A stretch of DNA of 32,000 nt. Origin: Methanococcoides orientis. GTDB lineage: Archaea > Halobacteriota > Methanosarcinia > Methanosarcinales > Methanosarcinaceae. The notes beneath the pieces are model-generated. The model was not told the DNA's origin and made no database searches. It saw nothing but the letters and a program-made list of their open reading frames with translations. This document shows positions 1 through 14,735 of the stretch, piece by piece (the stretch's first letter is position 1; the number at the start of each line of letters is the position of its first letter). Position numbers and translations under genes: made by a program. The stretch is from assembly GCF_021184045.1 (NCBI RefSeq), contig NZ_CP073710.1:970685-1002684 (forward strand), in the 5' to 3' direction.

Positions 1-1248
1 TCGGGAAATGGAGGATTTTCTTTCCTTTTAACTGAAGACACCATGTACCCCAGATTGCGCATAAAGCAACTCAAGGGGAAGACCTACAACGTAGAGTTCA
101 CTAAAGCACGAAGAAAATCCGTAAAAAAAGGTAACTTCAAGGGTCACTTTTTAGATGTACAGCACCTGGCTTGCATACTTACCGATAGTAAGTCGTTGTC
201 ACTTGAGAGTGCTTGTGAAATGTTTGACACGCAGATAAAGAAAAAAGCAGAAAAAGAACATGGCAAAGTAACACCAAGGTACATAGAATACAACATTAAA
301 GATGTGAAAGCAACCTACGAGGTATTCCAAAAAGTACGGGAAGAGTTCAATAAATATCAGCTGAACATCCCGATGACAAAGGTGTACTCAGCCGCCTCTC
401 TGGGTAAGCAGGCGTTGAGACAATGCAGTCTTAAATCATTTTCAGAACAAAACCCTAAATTTCCCAGAAAAATCATAGGTAATATCATGGGTGCATACTA
501 TGGGGGCAGATGTGAAGTAAAGGTACGCAAAACCCCGGTCAAAGTAACAGTACTTGACTTCTTTAGTATGTATCCTACTGTGATGCTTCTCCTGGGTCAC
601 TGGGAGTTTCTCATTGCAGCAAAAATGCGATACAAAACTGATACCAAAGCAGTACAGGAATTCATTGATAACTTAACATTGGAAAAAGCTTTAGACAAAG
701 ATTCCTGGAAGCAAATGAATGTACTTGTTGAATTGCAACCAGATGATGATATCTTTCCAGTACGAACCAATTATGCTAATCAAGATACACGCAATATAGG
801 GATAAATCATATCACATACAAAGATTCACTTTATTATTTCCTGCCAGACGTACTTGCTTCAAAGCTTCTCGCAGGAAAATCACCACGAATCAAGAAAGCA
901 ATCCGATTTATTCCGGAAGGTGTTCAGAAAGGCCTGACTGAAACACAGATTTATGGCATTAAGATAGATCCGAAAAAGGATAATCTCATCAAATGCTTGG
1001 TGGAACACAGACAGGAAATAAAAAATGAAATGAGAGAAGTTGCAATAGATTCACATGATTACGAGATATTAGACTCCCAGCAAAGAGCAGTAAAAATTGT
1101 TAATAACTCAACGTCATATGGGATTTACCTAGAAGTAAACCCAAAAGAGGATGTTGAAGAATTAGAAATATTTAGCAACGCCAATTTCGATTCAATTGGT
1201 AAATATGAGCCACCTGGAGTTTTTTTTCCACCCCATAATCGGTGCTAA
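1..1248 (+). pseudogene. Family B DNA polymerase (protein-primed-like), N-terminal/middle fragment; 5' end lies outside the window; frame lost in T8 run at 1220-1227
   Basis: Frame 1 is open from nt 1 (SGNGGFSFLLTEDT precedes the listed Met at 43). Exo III-like motif YNIKDVKATY. Motif A-like VLDFFSMYPTVM (~nt 551-590). Motif B-like KIVNNSTSYGIY (~nt 1093-1128). The ORF ends 20 nt after the T8 homopolymer. Confidence 0.85.
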
Positions 1249-2515
1249 TATAACTGCAGGGTCTCGCCTTCTGCTTGCAATTGCTGAAAGATTTGTTCTG
1301 GAAAAAGGAGAGCTTCACACATACATGGACACGGATTCAATCTTTGTTCCTCCGCATCTTGCAGAGGAATTGAGTCATCTGTTCGATTCCTTAAATCCCT
1401 ACGACTTTGATAAACCCATCCTTGAGATTGAAGACGGGATGGATGATATCTGGTTCTATGGAATCAGTTCAAAGAGGTACTGCTTGTTCCATAAGGATGG
1501 GAAAGAGATCGTCATTCCTGGTGGAAAGAAGCTGTTCTATAAACTGCATGGTTTAGGACATATCACAAATCCTTTCAGCAGAGAACTTTGCGAAAAAGAT
1601 CATTGGCACAAACAGATTTGGTTGGATATACTCAAAGTCTATTACAATCCCGAACTTTTGAGTGGAATATTGGAGAAATACGAGAACTATTCAGTAATAT
1701 CGAACCTTTCAATCACCACAGCAAACCTCCACCGCAGATTTGAAAAACTGAACGATGGAAAATCTTTTGACAAACAGATAAAGCCATTTAACTTTATGCT
1801 TGTAGGGCAGGGGACTGTATCAAATAAAAAAGGTAGATCAGCTGTGCAGATAAAACCTATTACACCATTCAGCAAAAATCCTCAAGAAATCGTTGAATTG
1901 CCTTTTATCGACTATAAAACAGGAGATATTCTCCAAGGGAGACATTACTGGAAACCGCTCAGCGATGTTTTTGATAAATATATAAGTCACCCTGAAACCA
2001 AATTCGAGGGCGACATTGGTGTGCTCAAAAGAAGGCATCTGAATCCCAAAGGATGCATATACGTTGGTAAGGAATCCAACAACATAGATATGCAATGTCT
2101 TGAACAGTCGCAACTAGAAACATTCTATGACCTGGAATCACTGCAGGAGTATATACTTAATTTAACTCCCTCAAAGGCTAAAGAAATAGGGGTTAGCAAG
2201 AGTACTCTATTTAGTATGAAAATGAGAATAAAATCCCAAAAACTAAATCTCAATACATCAGCGGTGAAGAAACTTCTGGAGCATTTCTACAATGAAACAG
2301 AGAGCGTCTGTCCAGAGAAAAGACTACTTCAATCAGGTTACGATATGAATGATGTGATTAACTATGTTCGCAATCTAACTCCGAAAGAGGCAAAATCAAT
2401 TGGGATAAAGTACAGGAGTACACTCCAAAATCTAAAGAAAAGGGCTGAGCAGGGACAATTAAACCTTAACACATCAATAATGGATAAAGTTGTCACGCAT
2501 CTTCTGAATTGTTGA
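1196..2515 (+). pseudogene. Family B DNA polymerase, C-terminal fragment (palm motif C, KxY, thumb) plus two C-terminal HTH-like repeats
   Basis: The frame-2 ORF continues the polymerase directly after the T run with HPIIGANITAGSRLLLA. Motif C is YMDTDSIFV and the KxY motif is SSKRYCLF. Removing one T from 1220-1227 joins both ORFs as ...PPGVFFHPIIGANITAG... The listed Met at 1196 is probably not a real start. Confidence 0.85.
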
Positions 2516-2822: not shown

Positions 2823-2963
2823 ATGCGTTCTAAAGTAACTACGCAGATAGACGCTGACATTAAGTTGCTCTTTGATTCCACAAAAAAAGTACATGGGAAA
2901 TCTTACAGTGAAGTGCTTGAAAATGGAATACAAGAAATGTTGCGTGAGATCAAACCCATATAG
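2823..2963 (+). CDS. Small ribbon-helix-helix (CopG/Arc-like) protein, 46 aa (not in ORF track, below its length cutoff)
   Basis: My own translation is MRSKVTTQIDADIKLLFDSTKKVHGKSYSEVLENGIQEMLREIKPI. It shows a short N-terminal beta-strand pattern (KVTTQID) followed by two amphipathic helices split by a Gly-containing turn. The stop at 2961-2963 lies 3 nt before the ATG of the next ORF. Fold assignment is by pattern only. Confidence 0.45.
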   Translation: MRSKVTTQIDADIKLLFDSTKKVHGKSYSEVLENGIQEMLREIKPI

Positions 2964-2966
2964 ATA

Positions 2967-3287
2967 ATGAAAACCGAAATATCATATCTTAAAAGTTTAA
3001 TCGGTTTAGAAGAAGATAAAAATCAATATTTAAAGGGAACTAAACTGCAAAAGAATGATGATTCAGATATAATAGATCGGATAGGACAATTGAAACAGCA
3101 GATAGAACATGAATTGGAAACAATGCGCTTCCGTCTGTTTAATCTTACAAAAGACTTGATGTTAAGTATTGTAAAGGATGATTCAACAGACTGGTATTTT
3201 TATGCTCGCATTTACTCCTTTGATTCAGGGAATAAGGCAAAAGAGTGGGTTGTTGATAAGCTGAAATCTGAAGGTATGCTTCAATAA
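2967..3287 (+). CDS. Hypothetical protein, 106 aa, no family recognised (coiled-coil-like N-half, aromatic-rich C-half)
   Basis: ORF tightly coupled to the upstream RHH-like ORF. It is convergent with cas3, whose stop lies 11 nt away. No motif I can name. Confidence 0.55.
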   Translation: MKTEISYLKSLIGLEEDKNQYLKGTKLQKNDDSDIIDRIGQLKQQIEHELETMRFRLFNLTKDLMLSIVKDDSTDWYFYARIYSFDSGNKAKEWVVDKLKSEGMLQ

Positions 3288-3298
3288 AGATAGTATTT

Positions 3299-5953
3299 TT
3301 AAATAATAACTCCAATCATTGGGTTTTTTATTTCTTCTTTCAATTTTTCTAATCGTAAGCCATCTGTAAATGAATAATATTGTAAAAACTTTGGAGTTGA
3401 TAAAATAATATCAAATTTTTCATCTTTCTCTATTAGCCCTTCAGTCATAAGATATCCCAATATATCTTGACCATGAGCTTTATTTTTTATATTGATTATT
3501 GAAATAATGAATTGGTTGAGGAGACTAGTAATTTTTCTTCTGAGATATATATCTTTAAACTTATCAGTTGATGTTATGATTTCTTTCCAGACTTTGTATA
3601 CATTCTCAGTTACTACTTTCCCATTGCATATGATTTTATATTTTTTTTCTAACTTCTGAATTTCTGAATCACTTATAATAGACTCAATGTTATATCTGTC
3701 ATATTCTGACAGAAACTCTAGTGGAATGTCCTCACATACAAAAATATCTATTTTATCTAATTTATCATCAATTACATTCAGCTCATTGTTTATCGTTTGA
3801 TAATGTAGATCATTTATTTCACGATTTATTTTTTCAAATGAATCCTTTGCTATTTTTTTTAATTCATCTGATAAAATATGATAGTATTCATCGAATCTTT
3901 TGCAGATTAATATTTCTTTCATGTCGTTTTGGCTAATTTTTCTGGGGCTCAATATTTTGTATCGTTCTTGATCGGAATATATCTTCTTAGAATCTGCAAC
4001 TTTGCCATCTTTGTATTTTATGACGAAGAGTTTTGAAATACTTGCTTTCTTTTCATTACATTCTCTATTTATTCGTCCAGATATCTGTTCGATGCTATCT
4101 ATTATAGAGTAATCTCTAATACCAAAGTCGCAATCAATATCAACGCCTGCTTCTATAGATTGAGTCGAAACGATTATTATTCGTTCTTCTCTAGATTTAT
4201 TCTTTAGTTCCTCGATTAGTTTCTTTCTTCGCAAATTCGAGATGGTGCTATTCAACAAACAAAAAGAAAAATCATTAAACATTATATCAGAGGTCAGTTC
4301 TTCATATACTTTTCTTGAAGTATCAACCACATTTAAAGTTACAAGAACTTTTACGCTCCCTGTTTGGTAATTTGTGTTAATTTCTTCGATTAACAATTGT
4401 TTAATGCCCTCCATATCATTAATATCTAGTCTAAAATGAATTTCATTTCTTTTAAACAATTGATGGTTGTAATATTTTTGGGGATTACTGATTACTTGTG
4501 GAATTGCAGCATCATCTAAAAAAGAATTCAAATTCGGAAGTGTTGCACTCATAACAATGTAATATATATTAAAATTTTTACTTGTTTCACTGATAAAATT
4601 ATAAAAAACTCTTATATTTTTATCACTTAAGGTTTGTATCTCATCAATAATAACTATACTGTTGCATAAGTTAGCTATTTTATAACGATTGGTGCCACCA
4701 GTTTTTATGAAACAGTTGAAAAAGTTTACATTTGTAATTACATTTACACAATTATTTAAAAAATTATCATCCCGAATTATCATCATCTGCTTTAATTTAG
4801 AAATTGAATCTTCATCACCCATATCACGATATTTATCGACATATGCTCGCGAGTATATGTCTGAAACAAGACCTACTTTGTGAGGGAAGAACGAGTTTTC
4901 GAATAATGCATCATTTATAGCTTTGTAGTTCTGTTCTATAATATTGATGTAAGGAAATACATAAAACAAGCGCTTAACATTTTGATCATAGTCGAGAATA
5001 TTTAACGCCATTTTCATAGAAATATTTGTCTTCCCACCACCTGTAGGAATTGCCAACATAAATATTTTATTTCCTTCTTTTAGAAGTTTATTTGTACTTT
5101 TGTTGCATTCAATTAATATTTCTCTTCGCAGTTCATTTATATCATTGCAACAAGAATAATTTTTAAATTCGATTTGATCAATATCTGAGTTGTATGGTAT
5201 CTTTGAATAAGATTTGATCATTTTTTCTCGGATGTCTTGGTTTATAGTGTTTAAGGAGTACATCTCGTTCAATGAGTATGTGTAATGTAACGTTGAATAA
5301 GAATCGCTGAGAACAAGCAATGAATAAAGGAGCTTTACCAAAAGGAAGATTTTACTCCACTCAAAATTGCTCTTGAAAAATTCTCTTTTATTATCTTCGA
5401 GGAGTACTAACTCTCCAACATCTACTAAATGAAGAATTTTTTGAATAAGTTCTTTTTCTTCACGTGATGTGTCATCATCTTTAACGTGAAAATTAGTTAA
5501 ACTACTATGATGGGACCTAATAATATTAGCAAGTAAGTAGATAATCCCATGAGAATTTGGAAATTTTTTTAGTAAAAAAGAAGTTAATATTTTTTCTGAA
5601 AAAAGACTGTGATAGCTATTTCCTGATATCTTATTTCCTTTTACTTTCGCTATTTGGAAATTTGGATTTAGTTTTCCAACATCATGATAATATATTCCAT
5701 AAAGTATAATCTGCTTGATTTTATTTTGTTGTTTTTCTCCAAAAAGGTCGGAAATTAATTCGTCAAGTATAGGCTCAAGTTCCAATTTATCGATTATATG
5801 TAAAAAATATTTACCACATAATTCCAAATGATCTTCCAGGAATTCCAGATTATCTCCTTGTCTGTGAGCAGAATAAAATTGGTTGCATGGAACTAAGCTC
5901 TTATCCAAGATTATGAATAATTCATTGAAAGTATCAGAAGACATAGTAGACAT
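3299..5953 (-). CDS. cas3: CRISPR-associated helicase/nuclease Cas3 (HD domain fused to SF2 helicase)
   Basis: HD motifs YYHDVGKLNPNFQ and SHHS. Helicase motif I PTGGGKT, motif II IIDEIQ, motif III MSATLP, motif VI QISGRINR. Last gene of the cas6-cas8b-cas7-cas5-cas3 string. Confidence 0.93.
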   Translation of the reverse strand: MSTMSSDTFNELFIILDKSLVPCNQFYSAHRQGDNLEFLEDHLELCGKYFLHIIDKLELEPILDELISDLFGEKQQNKIKQIILYGIYYHDVGKLNPNFQIAKVKGNKISGNSYHSLFSEKILTSFLLKKFPNSHGIIYLLANIIRSHHSSLTNFHVKDDDTSREEKELIQKILHLVDVGELVLLEDNKREFFKSNFEWSKIFLLVKLLYSLLVLSDSYSTLHYTYSLNEMYSLNTINQDIREKMIKSYSKIPYNSDIDQIEFKNYSCCNDINELRREILIECNKSTNKLLKEGNKIFMLAIPTGGGKTNISMKMALNILDYDQNVKRLFYVFPYINIIEQNYKAINDALFENSFFPHKVGLVSDIYSRAYVDKYRDMGDEDSISKLKQMMIIRDDNFLNNCVNVITNVNFFNCFIKTGGTNRYKIANLCNSIVIIDEIQTLSDKNIRVFYNFISETSKNFNIYYIVMSATLPNLNSFLDDAAIPQVISNPQKYYNHQLFKRNEIHFRLDINDMEGIKQLLIEEINTNYQTGSVKVLVTLNVVDTSRKVYEELTSDIMFNDFSFCLLNSTISNLRRKKLIEELKNKSREERIIIVSTQSIEAGVDIDCDFGIRDYSIIDSIEQISGRINRECNEKKASISKLFVIKYKDGKVADSKKIYSDQERYKILSPRKISQNDMKEILICKRFDEYYHILSDELKKIAKDSFEKINREINDLHYQTINNELNVIDDKLDKIDIFVCEDIPLEFLSEYDRYNIESIISDSEIQKLEKKYKIICNGKVVTENVYKVWKEIITSTDKFKDIYLRRKITSLLNQFIISIINIKNKAHGQDILGYLMTEGLIEKDEKFDIILSTPKFLQYYSFTDGLRLEKLKEEIKNPMIGVII

Positions 5954-6698
5954 TACCTTCCGACATAATGAAATTCTCTGGATTCTTCAATTGTACCTTG
6001 CATTCTTTTTGTGGTATTGCCATTAGGTTATAAGTATACTTGAAATTATCATCAAAATCTACTGGAAGCATTTCAAGTTTTATATTGCCATTACCTTCTT
6101 TTTCTAGCTCATAGAAGGGGAAGATACTAGAGCACACCGTTTCTTTTCTAGAATTTATCTCATAATCTTTTAATGAAATATATTGAATATTCGCAAAAAA
6201 TTCATTTTTACCGAGATATATGTGAAAAACACTACGGTTATTCTGAATATTTTTAATTATTACTTTATGCAGTTCATTACTTTCGTCCAGCAGTAAGCCA
6301 ATTTCGTAATCTGGGTATAAAATCACCTGTTCATTTATAATTACGTTTGGAGAATCGGTGTCTTTTCTATTGTTCAGGAAACTGTTCAAGCTGTTATAAT
6401 TCACCGTAAATTTTCTATCAGAAATATTGTTAGACTTAATGAAAACTTTCAAATCACCAATTTTAGAATAAAATTCAGGTTCAATGGTCCTGTTTTTATA
6501 TCCTCCAAGACCAGCAATTGAACCAATAAGTCCCAGTAACTGAGGTTTTGGAATGATGGAATACGTGTTCCTGAAGCGATTGCTTATGGGTTGATTAAAA
6601 TGAGCAAAATTTCCATACAATCTAAAAGTCAGGAGTTTATTTGATTTATTGCCAATCTTATATTCTCCTGATGAAGAGTATTCCAGCTTTTGAGTCAT
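5934..6698 (-). CDS. cas5: CRISPR-associated protein Cas5, type I-B
   Basis: N-terminal Cas5 signature LTFRLYGNFAHFNQP...PKPQLLGLIGSIAGLGG. The ORF track starts at a GTG at 6722. I prefer the ATG at 6698 (MTQKLEY), which is preceded by AGGTG. It overlaps the cas3 start by 20 nt. Confidence 0.88.
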   Translation of the reverse strand: MTQKLEYSSSGEYKIGNKSNKLLTFRLYGNFAHFNQPISNRFRNTYSIIPKPQLLGLIGSIAGLGGYKNRTIEPEFYSKIGDLKVFIKSNNISDRKFTVNYNSLNSFLNNRKDTDSPNVIINEQVILYPDYEIGLLLDESNELHKVIIKNIQNNRSVFHIYLGKNEFFANIQYISLKDYEINSRKETVCSSIFPFYELEKEGNGNIKLEMLPVDFDDNFKYTYNLMAIPQKECKVQLKNPENFIMSEGNVYYVF

Positions 6699-6718
6699 GT
6701 AAGCACCTGATAAATTAG

Positions 6719-7603
6719 TCACTTCTCACTCGATTCCAGGGAATAAATATTTTTGACTTTATTGCTGTATTGCTCAAGTGAATCGTCAATGATTTCCTCT
6801 TTTATAATATCTATAACCTTTGAGTAATCTACAATCATTTCACCCTCTGATTCATAGACATCTACCAATGAGTTTAGGTTGTTGAAAATCCGATCATTTT
6901 TGTTCTTAAACCAAAGCGTGCTTACCGTTTCACAGCCAAACATGGTGGTGGAAGTTATTTCTCCCACTGCATATTTCAATGCATTTTTAAGTTTTTTGAT
7001 ATCATCATCCGACACTTTAATTCCTTGTTTCTCTGCAGAATTCATGTTAAGGCAGATGTCATATACGTAGTAAACGTCGTCTGCTCTGGCTTCATTTCCT
7101 ATTGTTGTCTTCTGAGCATCCTGGCTTTTCTCATTTGGATTTCTATAAGGGGACAATATATCGGAAGAATATATATTGGATCCATCTAACCTGTTCACAC
7201 CATAATTGATCTGACAAGGGCCTGTCATAGAAATATTACGTGTATCATCGCCACTGATTGCAAATACAACTCCAAACAATCGAACATCTATGAAACCTTT
7301 GAGGTCGCTAATAATCTCACTTTCATCTTTAGGCAGGGCACCTTTGTCACATTTTTTGAAATAATTCTCTTTTAATGTAAGGTATCGTTCTACCACTTCA
7401 TCCTCATTGCTTTTTTTATGAAACTCCTTGGTTCTCTGAACGAACACAGGTTCTTTTTTTGAAAGATACTCTCTTAAGCAATACTTCAACGCTTTATCAG
7501 TAGCAAATATCCTCCCGCTAGGCAGCCTTCTAGGGAGACCATCAAAACCTGCATTGAAACTCGCATTCTTTGCGTTTACAACAACCAAACCATTGTAGTT
7601 CAT
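6719..7603 (-). CDS. cas7: CRISPR-associated protein Cas7 (type I-B backbone subunit, Csh2-like)
   Basis: 294 aa, located between cas8b and cas5. The N-terminus VVNAKNASFNAGFDGLPRR...ATDKALKYCLR resembles the Cas7 RAMP N-terminal region. Its start directly abuts the cas8b stop. Confidence 0.8.
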   Translation of the reverse strand: MNYNGLVVVNAKNASFNAGFDGLPRRLPSGRIFATDKALKYCLREYLSKKEPVFVQRTKEFHKKSNEDEVVERYLTLKENYFKKCDKGALPKDESEIISDLKGFIDVRLFGVVFAISGDDTRNISMTGPCQINYGVNRLDGSNIYSSDILSPYRNPNEKSQDAQKTTIGNEARADDVYYVYDICLNMNSAEKQGIKVSDDDIKKLKNALKYAVGEITSTTMFGCETVSTLWFKNKNDRIFNNLNSLVDVYESEGEMIVDYSKVIDIIKEEIIDDSLEQYSNKVKNIYSLESSEK

Positions 7604-9505
7604 TTAATTATCCTCCTGTTGTGTAGATTCACGTTCTTCTTTTTCTTTTGTGGAAGAATAGAGATAGTTATCATCAAAGTAGCCTGTGTACAGAGAAATC
7701 TTGTTGTCCTCATATGACTTTTTGAATTCGAATGCTAGGACATTTTTAGTCAGATTGTGAAATCTCCGATTATTGTCAAGATATTCGTTATGAGAATACT
7801 TTTCAAGTACTGAAATTAACTTCTTTTTTAGCATGTCCATATTATGAACATTCATAGTATATTTTGTGAAGAGGTTTAACTTGTTCTTTCCTTTGTATTC
7901 CTGAACTAAGTAGTAAAATGCTTGTCCCATGCAGTAACTCGCTTCGAAATCATTCTCTATTTCAAAAGAGTCATTATCTTTCATTTTTTCTTTTAAAGCC
8001 ATGTATTCTGTAATGGTTTCGCCCCCGTTAGGTTCTATGTTTAGATACTTGTAGTAGATTGTAAGGAAGAAGCGGATTTTGTTAGGTCCGATCTTCATGT
8101 CATCACGAAGACCTGAATTTGTGATTAACTCAGAAAGCATTTCTCTGAATAGCTTTGAATAAATACAATCCTCAAAAAGGGAAACATCTTGAAAATACAA
8201 AAAGTTCCTAATAATTGAGTTGTATTCTATAATTTTCAGTTTAAGGAAAGGATGAAGTGTATCTCTCAACTTTTTCGGATTCTTTTCAAACAAGGACCCT
8301 ATAAGATTATTGTTAAAAATCAAGTTTAATTCTCTCAAAAATATTGATTTATCCCTTTCATTTTGAATGTATCTGATTGCTCCCTTCTTATTTTTATCAG
8401 GAAGCTCCTTTAAAGTTGAGTGTATCGAGATATCTTTAATATTAATAGTTGGTTTTATATTTTGAAGGTAGTAATTGAAATTATTAACATATGTGAATTC
8501 TATATCCTCAAGTTTCGGATTGGCAATCATCATCACATAATCAAATTCCTGAGATCGATTCCTGTCGTACAAAGATTTTAACATTTTTAAGATTCCAATA
8601 GGATCAGAAGAATAATCTCTGTAATCACTTGTCTCAACTGTTACAGTTGTGGGAAACACGTATCTGTAAAACTTGTATTTCTTGATGTATTCAAAATAAT
8701 CATAAATTTGTTTGGAACATTTTTCACATAAATTGAAATTTTCCGAACTTTTTGATTTCAAGTTAGACTTAAATCTTGTAGGATGCCTAAGAAGAAATTT
8801 CCTGTCTTTGGCCAGATCAAATATATTTCCAAAAGTCAACATATAAAGCTGACCCAATTCTCCACAGCTATCACAGTTTCCTTCAAATGTATTATATTTC
8901 AGAATTTTTTGCAGGGTATACTCTTCGATAGTAGCAATATAACTATCAATATCAGATTCATTTACAAGGAAAACGATTAAGTCATTTTCCCGTAGACCAA
9001 AAGTATTTTCAGGGTTTCTTGTATCAAAATTTCTAAAAAAACTCTCAACTCTATCACAGAGATTTGGGAATTGATTATAATACTCAGTTTTCTTGACTGA
9101 ATCTCTAAAAGAATCAACTTTTTTAGAAGGGATTTTTATAACCACATTTCCGTTTGGATGCTGTCGATTTATATTATCTTCATTTTTATCGAAGAAAACA
9201 TTAGTAAGTTTATAATGAGTGGGTGAATGACTTAAAAGTGCAGAATTGCTTCCAATATTGTTACTTCCTTTACGAGTGGGTCGCACAAACTTACTAGTAA
9301 AATATACAAGAGGATATTTTTCTAACAGTAAGATATCGTTTACCTCTTCTTCAATATCTGATCCACTAATAACAAATGGTGAGTCGCTTAAATTCGGAGG
9401 TACAATCAAAATTTTGGTCGTTTCATTTTTGGGTTCGGATTCATCTTCATTCAATAAAGCGTTATAGTCTTCTTCAGTAAACAAATTTACAATAAAATTG
9501 TACAT
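7604..9505 (-). CDS. cas8b: CRISPR-associated large subunit Cas8b, type I-B
   Basis: ~633 aa ORF in the canonical large-subunit position between cas6 and cas7. Cys4 cluster CDSC...CEKC. I prefer the ATG at 9505 (MYNFIVN), preceded by GGAGG, over the listed start at 9529. No separate cas11 gene is present. Confidence 0.78.
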   Translation of the reverse strand: MYNFIVNLFTEEDYNALLNEDESEPKNETTKILIVPPNLSDSPFVISGSDIEEEVNDILLLEKYPLVYFTSKFVRPTRKGSNNIGSNSALLSHSPTHYKLTNVFFDKNEDNINRQHPNGNVVIKIPSKKVDSFRDSVKKTEYYNQFPNLCDRVESFFRNFDTRNPENTFGLRENDLIVFLVNESDIDSYIATIEEYTLQKILKYNTFEGNCDSCGELGQLYMLTFGNIFDLAKDRKFLLRHPTRFKSNLKSKSSENFNLCEKCSKQIYDYFEYIKKYKFYRYVFPTTVTVETSDYRDYSSDPIGILKMLKSLYDRNRSQEFDYVMMIANPKLEDIEFTYVNNFNYYLQNIKPTINIKDISIHSTLKELPDKNKKGAIRYIQNERDKSIFLRELNLIFNNNLIGSLFEKNPKKLRDTLHPFLKLKIIEYNSIIRNFLYFQDVSLFEDCIYSKLFREMLSELITNSGLRDDMKIGPNKIRFFLTIYYKYLNIEPNGGETITEYMALKEKMKDNDSFEIENDFEASYCMGQAFYYLVQEYKGKNKLNLFTKYTMNVHNMDMLKKKLISVLEKYSHNEYLDNNRRFHNLTKNVLAFEFKKSYEDNKISLYTGYFDDNYLYSSTKEKEERESTQQEDN

Positions 9506-9617
9506 ATTTCCTCCAAATCTACAACACACTATACCATTTCACTCTTCAAAACACTCTTGTGTATCATGACACCGTATCCTATGTACGCTTAAACATTTAC
9601 CAAGTAAGAGGAAATAT

Positions 9618-10340
9618 TCACACAACCTCCAAACATCCAAACCCCATGGCATTCTTCTCCCCTAACCCTGCATCATATGCAAACCTTACAATCTCAGGAC
9701 TAGCCTCAAGTTCCAGAGTCATCAAACTACATCTCCTGAAACTATTGCCTATCGAAACGCGTTTTGGCTTGAAGTTCTTCACTTCCAGCACTTCAAAATG
9801 ATCATGCTCAACCTTGTGACCGTAGTATTCCTCGTACCTTGACGTAAGGTTCGTATGGACATTTTCATAAAACTTCGAGTCCTTTGGATACAAATCAATT
9901 TCAACAAGTTTTCCGTCCTTCTTCCTCATCGTTTTTGCATATACAGGAGAGAGGGTTGTAAACTTGCAGGACTCAGACATCTCCAGCTGAGGTATTATTT
10001 CTATACGCTCAATTATGAAATTTGCTTTTTTGACTCTTCCAAGGAAGAACTCTGGCTCGAGAAGCAAACCTTCCGTGAAGCTGCGAATGAACTCCGAGTC
10101 TGGTGAGGATATGAAAAAGTGTGCTTTATTGAAATCCAAACCATGTTTGTTCGGAATCCTATCCTCGATTATGAGATTCGAAAATGTATAGAACTTGAAA
10201 CCCTGGTGACTATGTGTCTTGTCTGCTAAAGTGATATTTGCACTGGCAAGCCGTGCGTAGAGCATTGATGCTAAACCATACTGATAATCGTAATGAATAT
10301 GATTGTTCGTTGTTTTTTGTATGGTTACCTTGCATCGCAT
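9618..10340 (-). CDS. cas6: CRISPR repeat endoribonuclease Cas6
   Basis: 240 aa. The C-terminal glycine-rich loop GLGEKNAMGFGCLEVV is typical of Cas6. It is the first gene downstream of the array trailer on the minus strand. Confidence 0.9.
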   Translation of the reverse strand: MRCKVTIQKTTNNHIHYDYQYGLASMLYARLASANITLADKTHSHQGFKFYTFSNLIIEDRIPNKHGLDFNKAHFFISSPDSEFIRSFTEGLLLEPEFFLGRVKKANFIIERIEIIPQLEMSESCKFTTLSPVYAKTMRKKDGKLVEIDLYPKDSKFYENVHTNLTSRYEEYYGHKVEHDHFEVLEVKNFKPKRVSIGNSFRRCSLMTLELEASPEIVRFAYDAGLGEKNAMGFGCLEVV

Positions 10341-10443: not shown

Positions 10444-10473
10444 TGTTCAATCCCCGTAATGTTTGAGTATGAC
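10444..10473 (-). repeat. Strongly decayed extra CRISPR repeat beyond the trailer end (19/30 identities)
   Basis: TGTTCAATCCCCGTAATGTTTGAGTATGAC aligns to the repeat consensus and retains the TTCAATCCC core. It lies 37 bp (one spacer length) from the degenerate repeat at 10511. Confidence 0.5.
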
Positions 10474-10510: not shown

Positions 10511-12334
10511 ATACTTGTCCCTCTTTGGTCTGATTTTAACGCTTGACGAAACTCTCCTGAACGCTTTCACCTATCTTGATTTCAATCCCACAATGATCTG
10601 ATTTTAACGCACCGCCCTTATGGACACGTAATAAAGCTAACAAATTTCAATCCCACAATGGTCTGATTTTAACCAGTAATATTAATGTCATGCCCTCGCT
10701 TGCAACATGTTTTATTTCAATCCCACAATGGTCTGATTTTAACTGAATACACTCCAAGAACGAGATTAATATCAATTGAATTTCAATCCCACAATGGTCT
10801 GATTTTAACTCGTTTCCAACTTGCAGACGGAACAAATCTTGACCAAATTTCAATCCCACAATGGTCTGATTTTAACTATTCTTGTCTTCCTCGCTTCCCT
10901 CTTCACTTCCGCATTTCAATCCCACAATGGTCTGATTTTAACGAACAAAAGCACGTTTTGTAGATTGGTAGATAAGGCATTTCAATCCCACAATGGTCTG
11001 ATTTTAACATTTTATTGATAGTTAACATTAATTCGTTTCCTCCATTTCAATCCCACAATGGTCTGATTTTAACACCAAACGCAAAAACGACAGATGGAGT
11101 TTCAGCAGAATTTCAATCCCACAATGGTCTGATTTTAACATTATAGCCCCCCACAACTGCCGCGCTGGTTACTGCATTTCAATCCCACAATGGTCTGATT
11201 TTAACCCTGTACAAAACTGTACAAAGTTAGTATGAAACTTAATTTCAATCCCACAATGGTCTGATTTTAACCCGAATCTCAATATTAGGTGTAAGCTCGT
11301 TATCATATTTCAATCCCACAATGGTCTGATTTTAACAAAGATAAAGCCGATTCTATGAACGCTTTTAGAAATATTTCAATCCCACAATGGTCTGATTTTA
11401 ACTATTAATTTTGATTTCACAGCAAATGTTCATTATACATTTCAATCCCACAATGGTCTGATTTTAACACGAATCGATAAACATCCTCAGTTGAAATATC
11501 ATATCATTTCAATCCCACAATGGTCTGATTTTAACCTTTGATCCTGATGATACCCTGAAAACCTTTACATTAATTTCAATCCCACAATGGTCTGATTTTA
11601 ACGAGGAATTAATTCCTCTTAAATATTACATTCATCAATATTTCAATCCCACAATGGTCTGATTTTAACCCAAAACGGATCTTCCGGTTCAAATCTATCA
11701 ACTATATTTCAATCCCACAATGGTCTGATTTTAACAAAAATCCTTGTTTCTCATTAATATTTGATACAATATTTCAATCCCACAATGGTCTGATTTTAAC
11801 CGTCTTTAATGAAGTCACCCTGCTTGTTCTTGGCAGATTTCAATCCCACAATGGTCTGATTTTAACTCAAATGCCGAAGCTGTCCCGGTGCAAATTAACA
11901 ATATTTCAATCCCACAATGGTCTGATTTTAACCATTGCGGCAGTGACGAATAAACCGTTCTATTTCAAATTTCAATCCCACAATGGTCTGATTTTAACAA
12001 AATTGTCACCAACCACAGAAACCTGCTGAATGGTATTTCAATCCCACAATGGTCTGATTTTAACGTTCATGTTTGCCGTACGATCCGGCAGGATACTTCA
12101 TTTCAATCCCACAATGGTCTGATTTTAACGATGTCAGTGATTGTCGTCTGTGGTTCCTCGACTACTGATTTCAATCCCACAATGGTCTGATTTTAACATT
12201 AATATTTGTTGGTTTGGGCGGGAATGTATTGCATACAGATTTCAATCCCACAATGGTCTGATTTTAACGGGCTAATTATATCGCTATTGAAGAAACTATA
12301 TTATATTTCAATCCCACAATGGTCTGATTTTAAC
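10511..12334 (-). CRISPR. CRISPR array, 28 x 30-nt repeats, 27 unique spacers of 35-41 bp (modal 36); transcribed on the minus strand
   Basis: The repeat on the plus strand is ATTTCAATCCCACAATGGTCTGATTTTAAC, which reads GTTAAAATCAGACCATTGTGGGATTGAAAT in transcript sense. I located every repeat by hand. Starts are 10511(deg), 10579(1 mismatch), 10644, 10714, 10780, 10847, 10913, 10979, 11044, 11110, 11176, 11242, 11307, 11373, 11439, 11506, 11573, 11640, 11706, 11771, 11837, 11903, 11969, 12035, 12100, 12168, 12239 and 12305. Repeat decay at the low-coordinate end and the ATTGAAAT 3' end set the orientation. Confidence 0.97.
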
Positions 12335-12526
12335 CAAGCTCATTTGGCCATATTTTACCCAACAAATTTGATCTATTGAAAAGCATCTATGCATTTATAG
12401 ATGGCTTTTTTCACAACTAAAGTTCTATTTTCTATTATAAAAAAACGTTCATCGGAAGCAAAAATTAAAACTTGTTTTCGGGGATTCCTTATTTTGCGTC
12501 TCCTATATAAGCATCCACGAAAAGGA
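12335..12526 (-). promoter_or_regulatory. CRISPR leader (AT-rich, between the cas2 stop and the first perfect repeat)
   Basis: 192-bp AT-rich non-coding stretch abutting the perfect-repeat end of the array. On the minus strand it has TATA-like elements (TTATATAGG, complement of 12503-12512; TTTTTTTATAATAG). A 7-bp inverted repeat CATCTAT-N6-ATAGATG lies at 12384-12403. Confidence 0.6.
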
Positions 12527-12790
12527 TTAAATGATTGAGTCTATTTCAGCTGGTCTGGACCCTAATTCATCTAACATGAGATACTTTTTATCTCTGACAT
12601 GGTAGATGAAAACACTATCTTCCTCTTCATTGATTATCTTCTTTAATTGGGACTATACTCTCAGATACTCGGCTTTTGTGAGTTCTCCTTCAAGTACACT
12701 ATTTTGCACCCAGTTGAGATATTGTTTTAAGAAAACACGCACTTTGTTTAAGCGTTCTACGCCAACATCATAGACAACAATCACATACAT
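12527..12790 (-). pseudogene. cas2: CRISPR-associated endoribonuclease Cas2 with in-frame TAG at codon 46 (12653-12655); pseudogene or amber read-through/pyrrolysine candidate
   Basis: My translation is [86 protein letters not shown]. It shows canonical Cas2 hallmarks (VVVYDV, WVQNSV.EGE, DSV.IY) on both sides of the TAG, in the same frame. The start lies 1 nt after the cas1 stop. It is absent from the ORF track because each half is under 60 aa. Confidence 0.88.
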
Positions 12791-12791
12791 C

Positions 12792-13793
12792 TTACCACCA
12801 CATCACAAGTGGTTTGTATGCTTCATCATCAAGTACGTGTTTTGATAGCTTGTAAAGCTCCAGCCGAATCAGTCGTTTATATGAAACATTTCGCTTCAAA
12901 CCTTTATGTTTGATAGTAGTAGACAACTTAGCATTATATTCTTGCAAAAAGACTTTTTTACCTTTTTCACTCAATAGCATATCCCCGATCTCCCCCATGA
13001 AGCAACTATCATCTAGCATATTCTTGTTTACAAGTTTGAGTATGATTCTATCTATTATGATAGGTTTGAAAATCTCACTTACATCAAGAGCAAGAGAAAA
13101 ACGACGTTCAAAGGGTTCGTGAAGGTATGATATAGTTGGATTTAATTGGGTGTTATAGATCTCAGAGAGCACTGTAGTGTACATCAAAGAATTGCCGAAA
13201 CTTATGAGTGTATTCATTTTATTACTTGGGGGGCGTCTGGTCCTTGTTATAATCCGATAATCCTCAGGAAATATTTCATCCAATGCACTATAGTATATGT
13301 TTCGTATGCGTCCCTCGACATTCATCATACTCGATATCGAGTCTGCATTAGGTAGGCGAGTAAACTCCGATTCTATTGAATTTATATGTTCATCCAGACT
13401 ATCCTGAAGACCATCTTTGCTCCTTGAGTAGTACCTCAAATTTTTGAGAATATTACCACAGGCTCCCTCGATGAATTTCCCTGCCAAAAACATTCTTTTT
13501 TCAGTATCGAGGTAATGAGATGCTTGTTTAATGACGAGATCTCCACTGATTAGCGTCTCTCGCGGGTACATACTGCCTTCGTAGAAACCATAATAATTAA
13601 AAAAGTGTATGGGGATGCCATTCTTTGCAAGGTATGAGACTACTCCTGATGATAAAGACAATCTGCCGTATGCATAAATCGAATATATCTTATTTATAGG
13701 TAAGACCCGCTTTTCATCCTTGTTCACAAAATAGACCGTGTTTTCTTTTCGCTTTAAGGTACCATCCTGCAAGATGTAATAATCTGTTCGCAT
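12792..13793 (-). CDS. cas1: CRISPR-associated integrase Cas1
   Basis: 333 aa. Catalytic-region motifs [17 protein letters not shown] and [11 protein letters not shown]. The C-terminal KPLVMWW is typical of I-B-type Cas1. It is flanked by cas4 and cas2. Confidence 0.95.
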
Positions 13794-13835: not shown

Positions 13836-14405
13836 TTAATCGTCATCGACTTCACCACAAAAACAGAACTCAAAATACGCACATTTCGAACAGATACGTA
13901 GGCGTTTAGGATGTGGCATCCTTCCTGTAACGATTTCTTCAATGTGTTCAATATCATTTTCTATTTTCTTTTCATCATCTTCTGTCAGTACAATTTCCTT
14001 GGTCTGGTTCAGCAGAGGGTAGTTCATAACACCCTGAGCATCAATTCCCCTCTGCTTAAGATAATAAATGTAGTAGAGCATTTGGCGTAAATGGGCATCT
14101 TCCATTTTTTTAGTTTTTTTGATATCGTGCAATTCTATGATGTCATTTCGCTTTTTCACAAAATCAATACTTATCGTATTGTCGATAGTAATATCTTTTT
14201 TATTTTTGCTATAGCGATCTTCATGGAGTAATTTTCCGATATTGACATTCTCGTCCTCACGTTCAAGAACAATGTTGTGGGAAAAAAGCCAGAGCTTGGT
14301 ATGACAGATGTGGTAATAGTTAATCTTGACACCTGTTATTTTTACGTAGGGTGTTAATGCAGTTGGTATGTCTTTAGATGTTGACAGACAATTTGAACCC
14401 ATCAA
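13836..14405 (-). CDS. cas4: CRISPR-associated exonuclease Cas4 (RecB-like, Fe-S)
   Basis: 189 aa. An N-terminal Cys (YHICHTKLW) plus the C-terminal CSKCAYFEFC cluster give the 4-Cys Fe-S pattern. QxxxY motif within LRQMLYYIYYL. Located upstream of cas1. Confidence 0.88.
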   Translation of the reverse strand: MMGSNCLSTSKDIPTALTPYVKITGVKINYYHICHTKLWLFSHNIVLEREDENVNIGKLLHEDRYSKNKKDITIDNTISIDFVKKRNDIIELHDIKKTKKMEDAHLRQMLYYIYYLKQRGIDAQGVMNYPLLNQTKEIVLTEDDEKKIENDIEHIEEIVTGRMPHPKRLRICSKCAYFEFCFCGEVDDD

Positions 14406-14650
14406 TATATAATTATATAAAACAATATTTAAATTATTTGCAAAGTTTTACCTAAAGATAGTACTGTTTGGATTAAATACGTATGGTCAAATATCTTAAA
14501 GAAGTAGAATCATTAACATTCTGATTTTTTTAGAGAATTTTATATATTATTGTATTTTTTAAAAAATATATTTAAAAAAAACAACTTCATAAAAATTTAA
14601 CGTACAAAAAAGTCCAATTTTTTTATTTCTTATATATCCCAAAAGAAAAG

Positions 14651-14735
14651 TGCGGGGGGAGGGATTCGAACCCTCGAAATCCTTCGATACCAGATCTTAA
14701 GTCTGGCGCCTTTGACCTAGCTGGGCGACCCCCGC
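14651..14735 (-). tRNA. tRNA-Leu (anticodon UAA), class II with long variable arm
   Basis: The reverse complement is GCGGGGGTCGCCCAGCTAGGTCAAAGGCGCCAGACTTAAGATCTGGTATCGAAGGATTTCGAGGGTTCGAATCCCTCCCCCCGCA. It folds by hand into a cloverleaf. The acceptor is GCGGGGG/CCCCCGC and the anticodon stem is CCAGA/TCTGG with loop CTTAAGA. The variable arm is TCGAA-GGA-TTCGA and the T arm is GAGGG-TTCGAAT-CCCTC. No CCA is encoded. Confidence 0.93.

Follow-up and report, generated by a model that had tools for sequence, protein, structure and literature searches.

The cas2 gene of an apparently type I-B-like CRISPR-Cas locus in Methanococcoides orientis is a complete reading frame interrupted by an in-frame amber (TAG) codon, and we consider its most probable explanation, at roughly 0.65, to be a neutral, lineage-specific change to TAG at a tolerant helix site that is decoded as pyrrolysine (Pyl), the 22nd amino acid and a lysine derivative, with full-length Cas2 being made. 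The DNA analyzed is a 32-kb stretch of the M. orientis genome, referred to as the window, and all positions are numbered from its first nucleotide.

Translation of the reverse complement places cas2 at 12790-12527 on the minus strand, where 87 codons are followed by a TAA at 12529-12527. A single internal TAG is found at codon 46 (12655-12653 on the minus strand, reading CTA on the plus strand), and the frame is otherwise undamaged, having neither a frameshift nor a second internal stop. Under the standard code (table 11) the frame is broken at codon 46 and is continuous only if TAG is a sense codon, and the list of open reading frames (ORFs) for the window shows only a 45-aa N-terminal piece (12653-12790), just as the first-pass annotation said when it reported that the ORF track misses this gene. 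Two family models recognize the whole frame: Pfam PF09827 (Cas2) matches with an E value of 6.1e-24 (84.4 bits against a cut-off of 23.8) over residues 1-71, and hence spans the TAG, and NCBIfam TIGR01573 (cas2) matches with an E value of 3.8e-13 (49.5 bits against a cut-off of 24.5). The closest homologues of the product are intact 87-aa Cas2 proteins that align with it over the full length without gaps at 77-85% identity; the top match has 85% identity across 100% of the length, and both halves flanking the TAG are homologous. Counted from the alignment, identity to one homologue (P0001) is ~93% in the N-terminal half and ~78% in the C-terminal half. Past the TAG lie 41 residues, among which I53, D58, Y63, D67, Y70, L71, E75, G77, I83, I86, and I87 are kept; these are all the invariant or near-invariant C-terminal columns of the alignment. 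D8, the conserved Asp at the end of beta-1, is invariant in the Cas2 alignment, and cas2 starts 1 nt past the cas1 stop, an arrangement shared by the relatives. The interrupted frame at 12527-12790 is a true Cas2, with similarity well beyond chance. Translation and both family models thereby bear out the earlier claim of an 87-codon cas2 with TAG at codon 46 between the leader and cas1, and the gapless alignment bears out its companion, that the frame is kept past the TAG to a natural stop at 12527-12529 with no other damage. In the protein collection, no entry matched the 45-aa fragment or the complete Cas2 with X or K at position 46. Because Cas6 (UGV41620) and Cas1 (UGV41621) carry consecutive protein IDs, cas2 appears to have been overlooked or deemed broken by annotators, and the public M. 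orientis record presumably gives it no protein product.

The genes around cas2 are all encoded on the minus strand. Intact cas4 (13836-14405; Pfam Cas_Cas4, E=3e-54) and cas1 (12792-13793; Pfam Cas1, E=2e-88) precede it; the Cas1 is 100% identical to UGV41621.1, and the NCBI label on this identical protein is "type I-B Cas1b." A leader of ~190 nt (12335-12526) separates the cas2 stop from the array (10511-12334), in which 28 repeats, each 30 nt long, alternate with 27 spacers of 35-41 nt. Twenty-six of the repeats are identical and two, at the distal end, are degenerate, and we placed the leader on the cas2 side because these two lie farthest from cas2. The far end decays stepwise, with one mismatch in the repeat at 10579-10608 and eight in the repeat at 10511-10540, and a weaker repeat-like remnant is seen near 10446, beyond the distal end. 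The spacers had no match elsewhere in the window or in the retrieved loci of relatives. Beyond the array are an intact cas6 (9618-10340; Pfam Cas6 and TIGR01877; exact match to UGV41620.1) and an interference module (3299-9529) whose genes are all open. It consists of a cas8b candidate (7604-9529) assigned by position alone, cas7 (6719-7603; best subtype model Csh2 [I-B], below cut-off), cas5b (5934-6722; best subtype model Cas5b [I-B], below cut-off), and cas3 (3299-5953; Cas3 core and HD domains above cut-offs). The 641-aa large-subunit candidate matched no Pfam or NCBIfam family at E≤1e-3, and the matches of Cas3 core, HD, Cas6, Cas4, and Cas1 all score above curated cut-offs. All cas genes other than cas2 are thus open and full length, and judged by these matches the locus appears to be type I-B-like, with a large subunit that has no family match and with Cas5 and Cas7 matches below cut-off.

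The GC content is 29-37% at ~2-14 kb, which covers the CRISPR-Cas genes, versus 42-48% in the neighboring housekeeping genes, and a tRNA-Leu(UAA) gene identified by ARAGORN (14650-14735, minus strand) marks the point where the low-GC CRISPR-Cas island gives way to core genes of higher GC content. The low GC content together with the end at a tRNA-Leu gene suggests that the CRISPR-Cas region may be a horizontally acquired island. Cas1 is 88-90% identical to proteins of M. burtonii, Methanolobus, ANME-2, and "Methanoperedens" MAG contigs. In the I-B locus of M. burtonii (CP000300.1, 1209171-1215434) cas3 is directly upstream of cas4-cas1-cas2, whereas in M. orientis the array separates the adaptation genes from cas6-cas8-cas7-cas5-cas3; despite this difference in gene order, the Cas6 proteins of the two species fall in one shared 90%-identity cluster.

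The TAG is lineage-specific among the sequences that we compared. These comprise 141 related cas2 loci, of which ~70 are located beside Cas1 relatives in species-representative genomes and 71 are metagenomic, as well as the best 120 protein matches, and no stop at column 46 was found in any of the ~70 genomic cas2 genes, the 71 metagenomic cas2 genes, or the 120 proteins. A search of metagenome contigs with a degenerate DNA pattern for NWVQNSV(L/F)EGELT... and TAG at codon 46 returned zero matches, a count that comes without a TAG-free denominator. The collections hold no near-identical second copy of the locus: the next Cas1 is 90% identical, and the nucleotide identity of cas2 to its nearest relatives is 73-77%. 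Because TAG is present in no orthologue, the change fits a plain substitution rather than a selected feature. The first-pass annotation had envisaged that orthologues might show a strain-specific TAG alongside other decay; the first half of this holds, since the column is sense in all relatives, and clear accompanying decay was not found.

Column 46 is among the most variable of the Cas2 family. In the 141 loci it is occupied by Lys (65), Arg (24), Met (14), Leu (8), and His, Gln, Thr, and Glu (5 each), plus others, and in the best 120 protein matches by Met (50) and Arg (42), with fewer Leu, His, Lys, Gln, Thr, Tyr, and Ile. Close relatives use CAT (His), TAT (Tyr), and CAG or CAA (Gln) as codon 46, and M. 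burtonii has CAA. From CAG a TAG is reached by one C-to-T transition, and from TAT by one third-position change. In an AlphaFold model (pLDDT 77) residue 46 is located in the middle of helix alpha-2, and the predicted strands (E) and helices (H) are E2-8, H11-22, E26-29, E32-36, H39-52, E59-65, and E70-76, where the helix H39-52 is broken at position 46, which was modeled as an unknown residue. The model thus contains a predicted ferredoxin-like beta-alpha-beta-beta-alpha-beta fold of the kind found in Cas2. Termination at codon 46 would, according to this model, remove half of alpha-2 together with beta-4 and beta-5, and the 45 residues left would not make up a Cas2. The closest solved structure is that of Pyrococcus furiosus Cas2 PF1117 (PDB 2i0x; also 4tno and 7ei1), which resembles the M. 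orientis protein in length and fold (E=8e-29, residues 1-85) but has an ordinary sense codon and a host that is not a Pyl decoder. Because the column is variable and a Lys in 2i0x is aligned with codon 46, long side chains seem to be tolerated here, and one derived from lysine is plausible.

M. orientis LMO-1 is a methylotrophic methanogen that has been cultured on 30 mM trimethylamine (TMA) (PMC11885431). Deletion mutants of M. acetivorans that lack pyl genes do not grow on TMA (PMC12626013), and M. burtonii carries pyl genes (PMC2933860, PMC3639795). From the growth on TMA, the requirement for Pyl on this substrate, and the pyl genes of M. burtonii, we strongly infer that M. orientis decodes UAG as Pyl, and its genome, given TMA growth and the example of M. 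burtonii, presumably contains the pyl genes. The suspicion raised from the letters alone, that the host is a Pyl-decoding member of the Methanosarcinales, was thus well placed: M. orientis belongs to this order, it grows on TMA, and the case for decoding is strong. Within the 32-kb window we found no pylT, pylS, or pylBCD, and the sole tRNA seen by ARAGORN is tRNA-Leu. Among 29 confident genes in the window, a sample corresponding to ~1% of the genome, 21 end in TAA, eight in TGA, and none in TAG, and the trinucleotide TAG/CTA occurs 542 times in the window, versus 1243 for TAA and 1438 for TGA, counting both strands. When other internal-TAG genes were sought in the window, only antisense shadow ORFs were found. 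An unannotated ORF of 106 aa (2967-3287, plus strand) would gain 46 codons upstream (2823-3287) if translation continued through an in-frame TAG; this 106-aa ORF has no family matches. Elsewhere in the window, a hydantoinase (exact match to UGV41638.1) shares 94-95% identity with proteins from Methanococcoides sp. AM1 and M. methylutens, and an MBL hydrolase is an exact match to M. orientis UGV41623.1.

Internal TAG codons outside methyltransferase genes have been surveyed by Kivenson et al. (bioRxiv 10.1101/2024.09.30.615893), who place Methanococcoides among the genera rich in internal-TAG genes. Of the 39 expressed TAG-containing proteins of the sister species M. burtonii, 27 were shown by proteomics to carry Pyl at the TAG, and no other residue was detected at TAG positions; the code proposed there ("Genetic Code 34") reads TAG always as Pyl. 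The authors describe Pyl observed in a Cas1 and predicted in Cas2, Cas4, Cas8e, and Cas10. They characterize nearly all nonmethyltransferase cases as single-genome or single-genus singletons that probably arose by neutral mutation, and they put the incidence of Pyl in Cas proteins at no more than random mutation would predict. Category 1 in this survey comprises genes that have >30% identity on each side of the TAG and extend >15 aa past it, and M. orientis cas2, with ~93% and ~78% identity and 41 aa past the TAG, belongs in this category. It shares with the singletons a Methanococcoides host, an internal TAG with homology on both sides, a lineage-restricted distribution, independence of a PYLIS element, and a role as a CRISPR adaptation gene. 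The TAG-bearing cas2 of M. orientis is therefore of a kind already described, Cas2 included, and the suggestion of the first-pass annotation that a Pyl-dependent Cas2 would be novel does not survive, such proteins having been reported in TAG-recoded archaea including Methanococcoides (bioRxiv 10.1101/2024.09.30.615893).

Other Pyl proteins resemble this Cas2 to differing degrees. The tRNA-His guanylyltransferase Thg1 of M. acetivorans is the classic precedent for neutral drift to Pyl (PMC2933860); there, as in cas2, a TAG was gained in one species, at a position where Pyl is dispensable for Thg1 activity, but Pyl incorporation and activity are experimental for Thg1 whereas for Cas2 both are inferred. 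In the sensor kinase RdmS of M. acetivorans an internal UAG leads to a long and a short product, according to Shalvarjian et al. (PMC12626013). Like cas2, the gene for RdmS does not encode a methyltransferase, has a UAG within its frame, and belongs to a Pyl decoder of the Methanosarcinaceae; it differs in that both the long (Pyl) and the short form have been shown, whereas the TAG of Methanococcoides is claimed to be fully reassigned. In the methylamine methyltransferases MtmB, MtbB, and MttB, UAG is decoded as Pyl by what would be the same machinery as for Cas2; in these, however, different taxa share the TAG, Pyl takes part in catalysis, and mtmB carries a PYLIS element, whereas in cas2 the TAG is found in one lineage, at a variable surface-helix position, and with no downstream structure.

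Of the three possibilities that the first-pass annotation had listed, Pyl insertion is now the best supported, and a recent nonsense mutation that disables adaptation persists as the main rival, which we judge unlikely. If cas2 were such a recent pseudogene, Cas2 would effectively end at residue 45, with read-through being too inefficient or Pyl46-Cas2 being inactive, and adaptation would have been lost while interference from the 27 existing spacers continued. The occurrence of TAG in no orthologue examined and the lack of a public cas2 protein entry agree with this, as do the half helix and two strands that a stop would cost and the finding that UAG can still act as a stop in a methanogen that decodes Pyl (PMC12626013). 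Some decay may also be present in the neighborhood: the gene for a protein-primed, family-B DNA polymerase (PolB; 43-2515, plus strand) is seemingly frameshifted. Its two parts are ORFs 43-1248 and 1196-2515, which overlap and differ in frame; the first has the DNA_pol_B_2 and DNA_pol_B matches, and within the overlap (1196-1248) the frame changes at a run of eight T (1220-1227). This change of frame may be genuine, may reflect a slippery site, or may stem from misassembly of the homopolymer, and PolB, located beside cas3 at the window edge, may be part of an upstream mobile element (casposon-like or provirus). In cas2 itself, no clear sign of decay was found, the TAG being the single lesion and all conserved C-terminal columns being kept. 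The residues unique to M. orientis Cas2 (K51, E56, M72, and L73) are conservative or at variable sites. Its C-terminal half has a mean of 11.4 differences from nine close relatives, within the 6.9-12.2 range of intact genes and below the most divergent, the intact cas2 of M. burtonii (12.2), in a comparison whose 41 codons give it low power. Relative-rate counts reveal a ~2:1 excess of lineage-specific changes in both halves that is not significant and has the direction of relaxed constraint; the modest excess in the C-terminal half is what a pseudogene reading can claim from it. Because synonymous sites are saturated (pS 0.63-0.95 versus the nearest relatives), dN/dS has no estimate for the C-terminal half. 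A decaying pseudogene would be recognized by multiple lesions or by clearly relaxed constraint past the stop, and cas2 displays neither. By comparison, a related cas2 on metagenome contig Ga0124853_1469210 (1762-1998) has three stops and a gap and is truly disrupted. Also counting against a pseudogene are the tolerance of site 46 for many residues, the intactness of all other cas genes, and the genome-wide reading of TAG as Pyl in the genus, as indicated by proteomics (bioRxiv 10.1101/2024.09.30.615893).

That the TAG is a sequencing or assembly error, the true codon being CAG, TAT, TAC, or AAG and cas2 being ordinary and intact, seems to us very improbable. TAG is one substitution from the codons of relatives, a single assembly of the species is on record with no independent copy, and the possible frameshift in the T8 homopolymer of PolB (1220-1227) hints at assembly errors. 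The lesion in cas2, however, is a substitution in a nonrepetitive context and not a homopolymer indel, and the isolate is a cultured one whose record consists of one 2.49-Mb contig. At normal coverage, substitution errors in a consensus are rare. Slightly less probable still is a selected regulatory Pyl, by which full-length Cas2 and spacer acquisition would scale with the supply of Pyl-tRNA, and thus with methylamines, or Pyl46 would have a role in the Cas1-Cas2 complex. It would draw on the pyl genes of M. acetivorans being induced at least 4-fold by TMA relative to methanol (PMC12626013), and on the aligned position being mostly Lys or Arg in the wider family, which would place a lysine-derived residue at a usually basic site. 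Against it, TAG is present in none of the >260 homologues nor in the metagenome scan, and no PYLIS-like structure was found 3' of the TAG, where 101 nt fold with -17.7 kcal/mol (z=-1.41) and 20 of 200 shuffled sequences are as stable. Special context is not needed for Pyl insertion in general (PMC12626013, PMC2933860). A regulatory role is further disfavored by the incidence of Pyl in Cas proteins, described as consistent with random mutation (bioRxiv 10.1101/2024.09.30.615893), and by the obligate methylotrophy of Methanococcoides, in which the Pyl machinery would be expected to be mostly on.

We therefore return to a neutral Pyl codon as the preferred explanation. A TMA-grown host, the absence of TAG among the 29 stop codons, the M. 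burtonii proteomics, and the Category 1 features of cas2 all support it, as do the variability of column 46, the one-step codons in relatives, and the lack of any other lesion. It is weakened by the lack of pyl genes and tRNA-Pyl in the window, by the missing public cas2 entry, and by the short product of RdmS (PMC12626013). Under this explanation a single-nucleotide substitution at a variable position in the middle of alpha-2 would have created the TAG, the most economical routes being CAG (Gln) to TAG or TAY (Tyr) to TAG. Ribosomes of a Pyl-decoding M. orientis would insert Pyl at the cas2 UAG and produce a full-length 87-residue Cas2 with Pyl46, possibly along with some 45-residue termination product. 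Pyl is likely to be inserted at codon 46, and Pyl46-Cas2 would probably be active. Pyl46 would then be a neutral passenger, as in M. acetivorans Thg1, and not a regulatory device; cas2 would go on serving adaptation as usual in a type I-B system that is intact in all other respects and whose adaptation module probably still works.

On its own, the TAG in cas2 matters little. Internal-TAG genes of Pyl-decoding archaea are dropped or pseudogenized by standard gene callers and annotation pipelines, and cas2 is one more example; the type I-B system of M. orientis would be wrongly scored as lacking Cas2 when its capacity for spacer acquisition is judged. With 87 residues, a nonessential function, and a cultured host, this cas2 is a small, convenient test case for how often Pyl insertion, as opposed to termination, occurs at a nonmethyltransferase UAG, and it is over this balance that the views of a fully reassigned TAG (Kivenson et al.) and of an ambiguous UAG (Shalvarjian et al.) differ.
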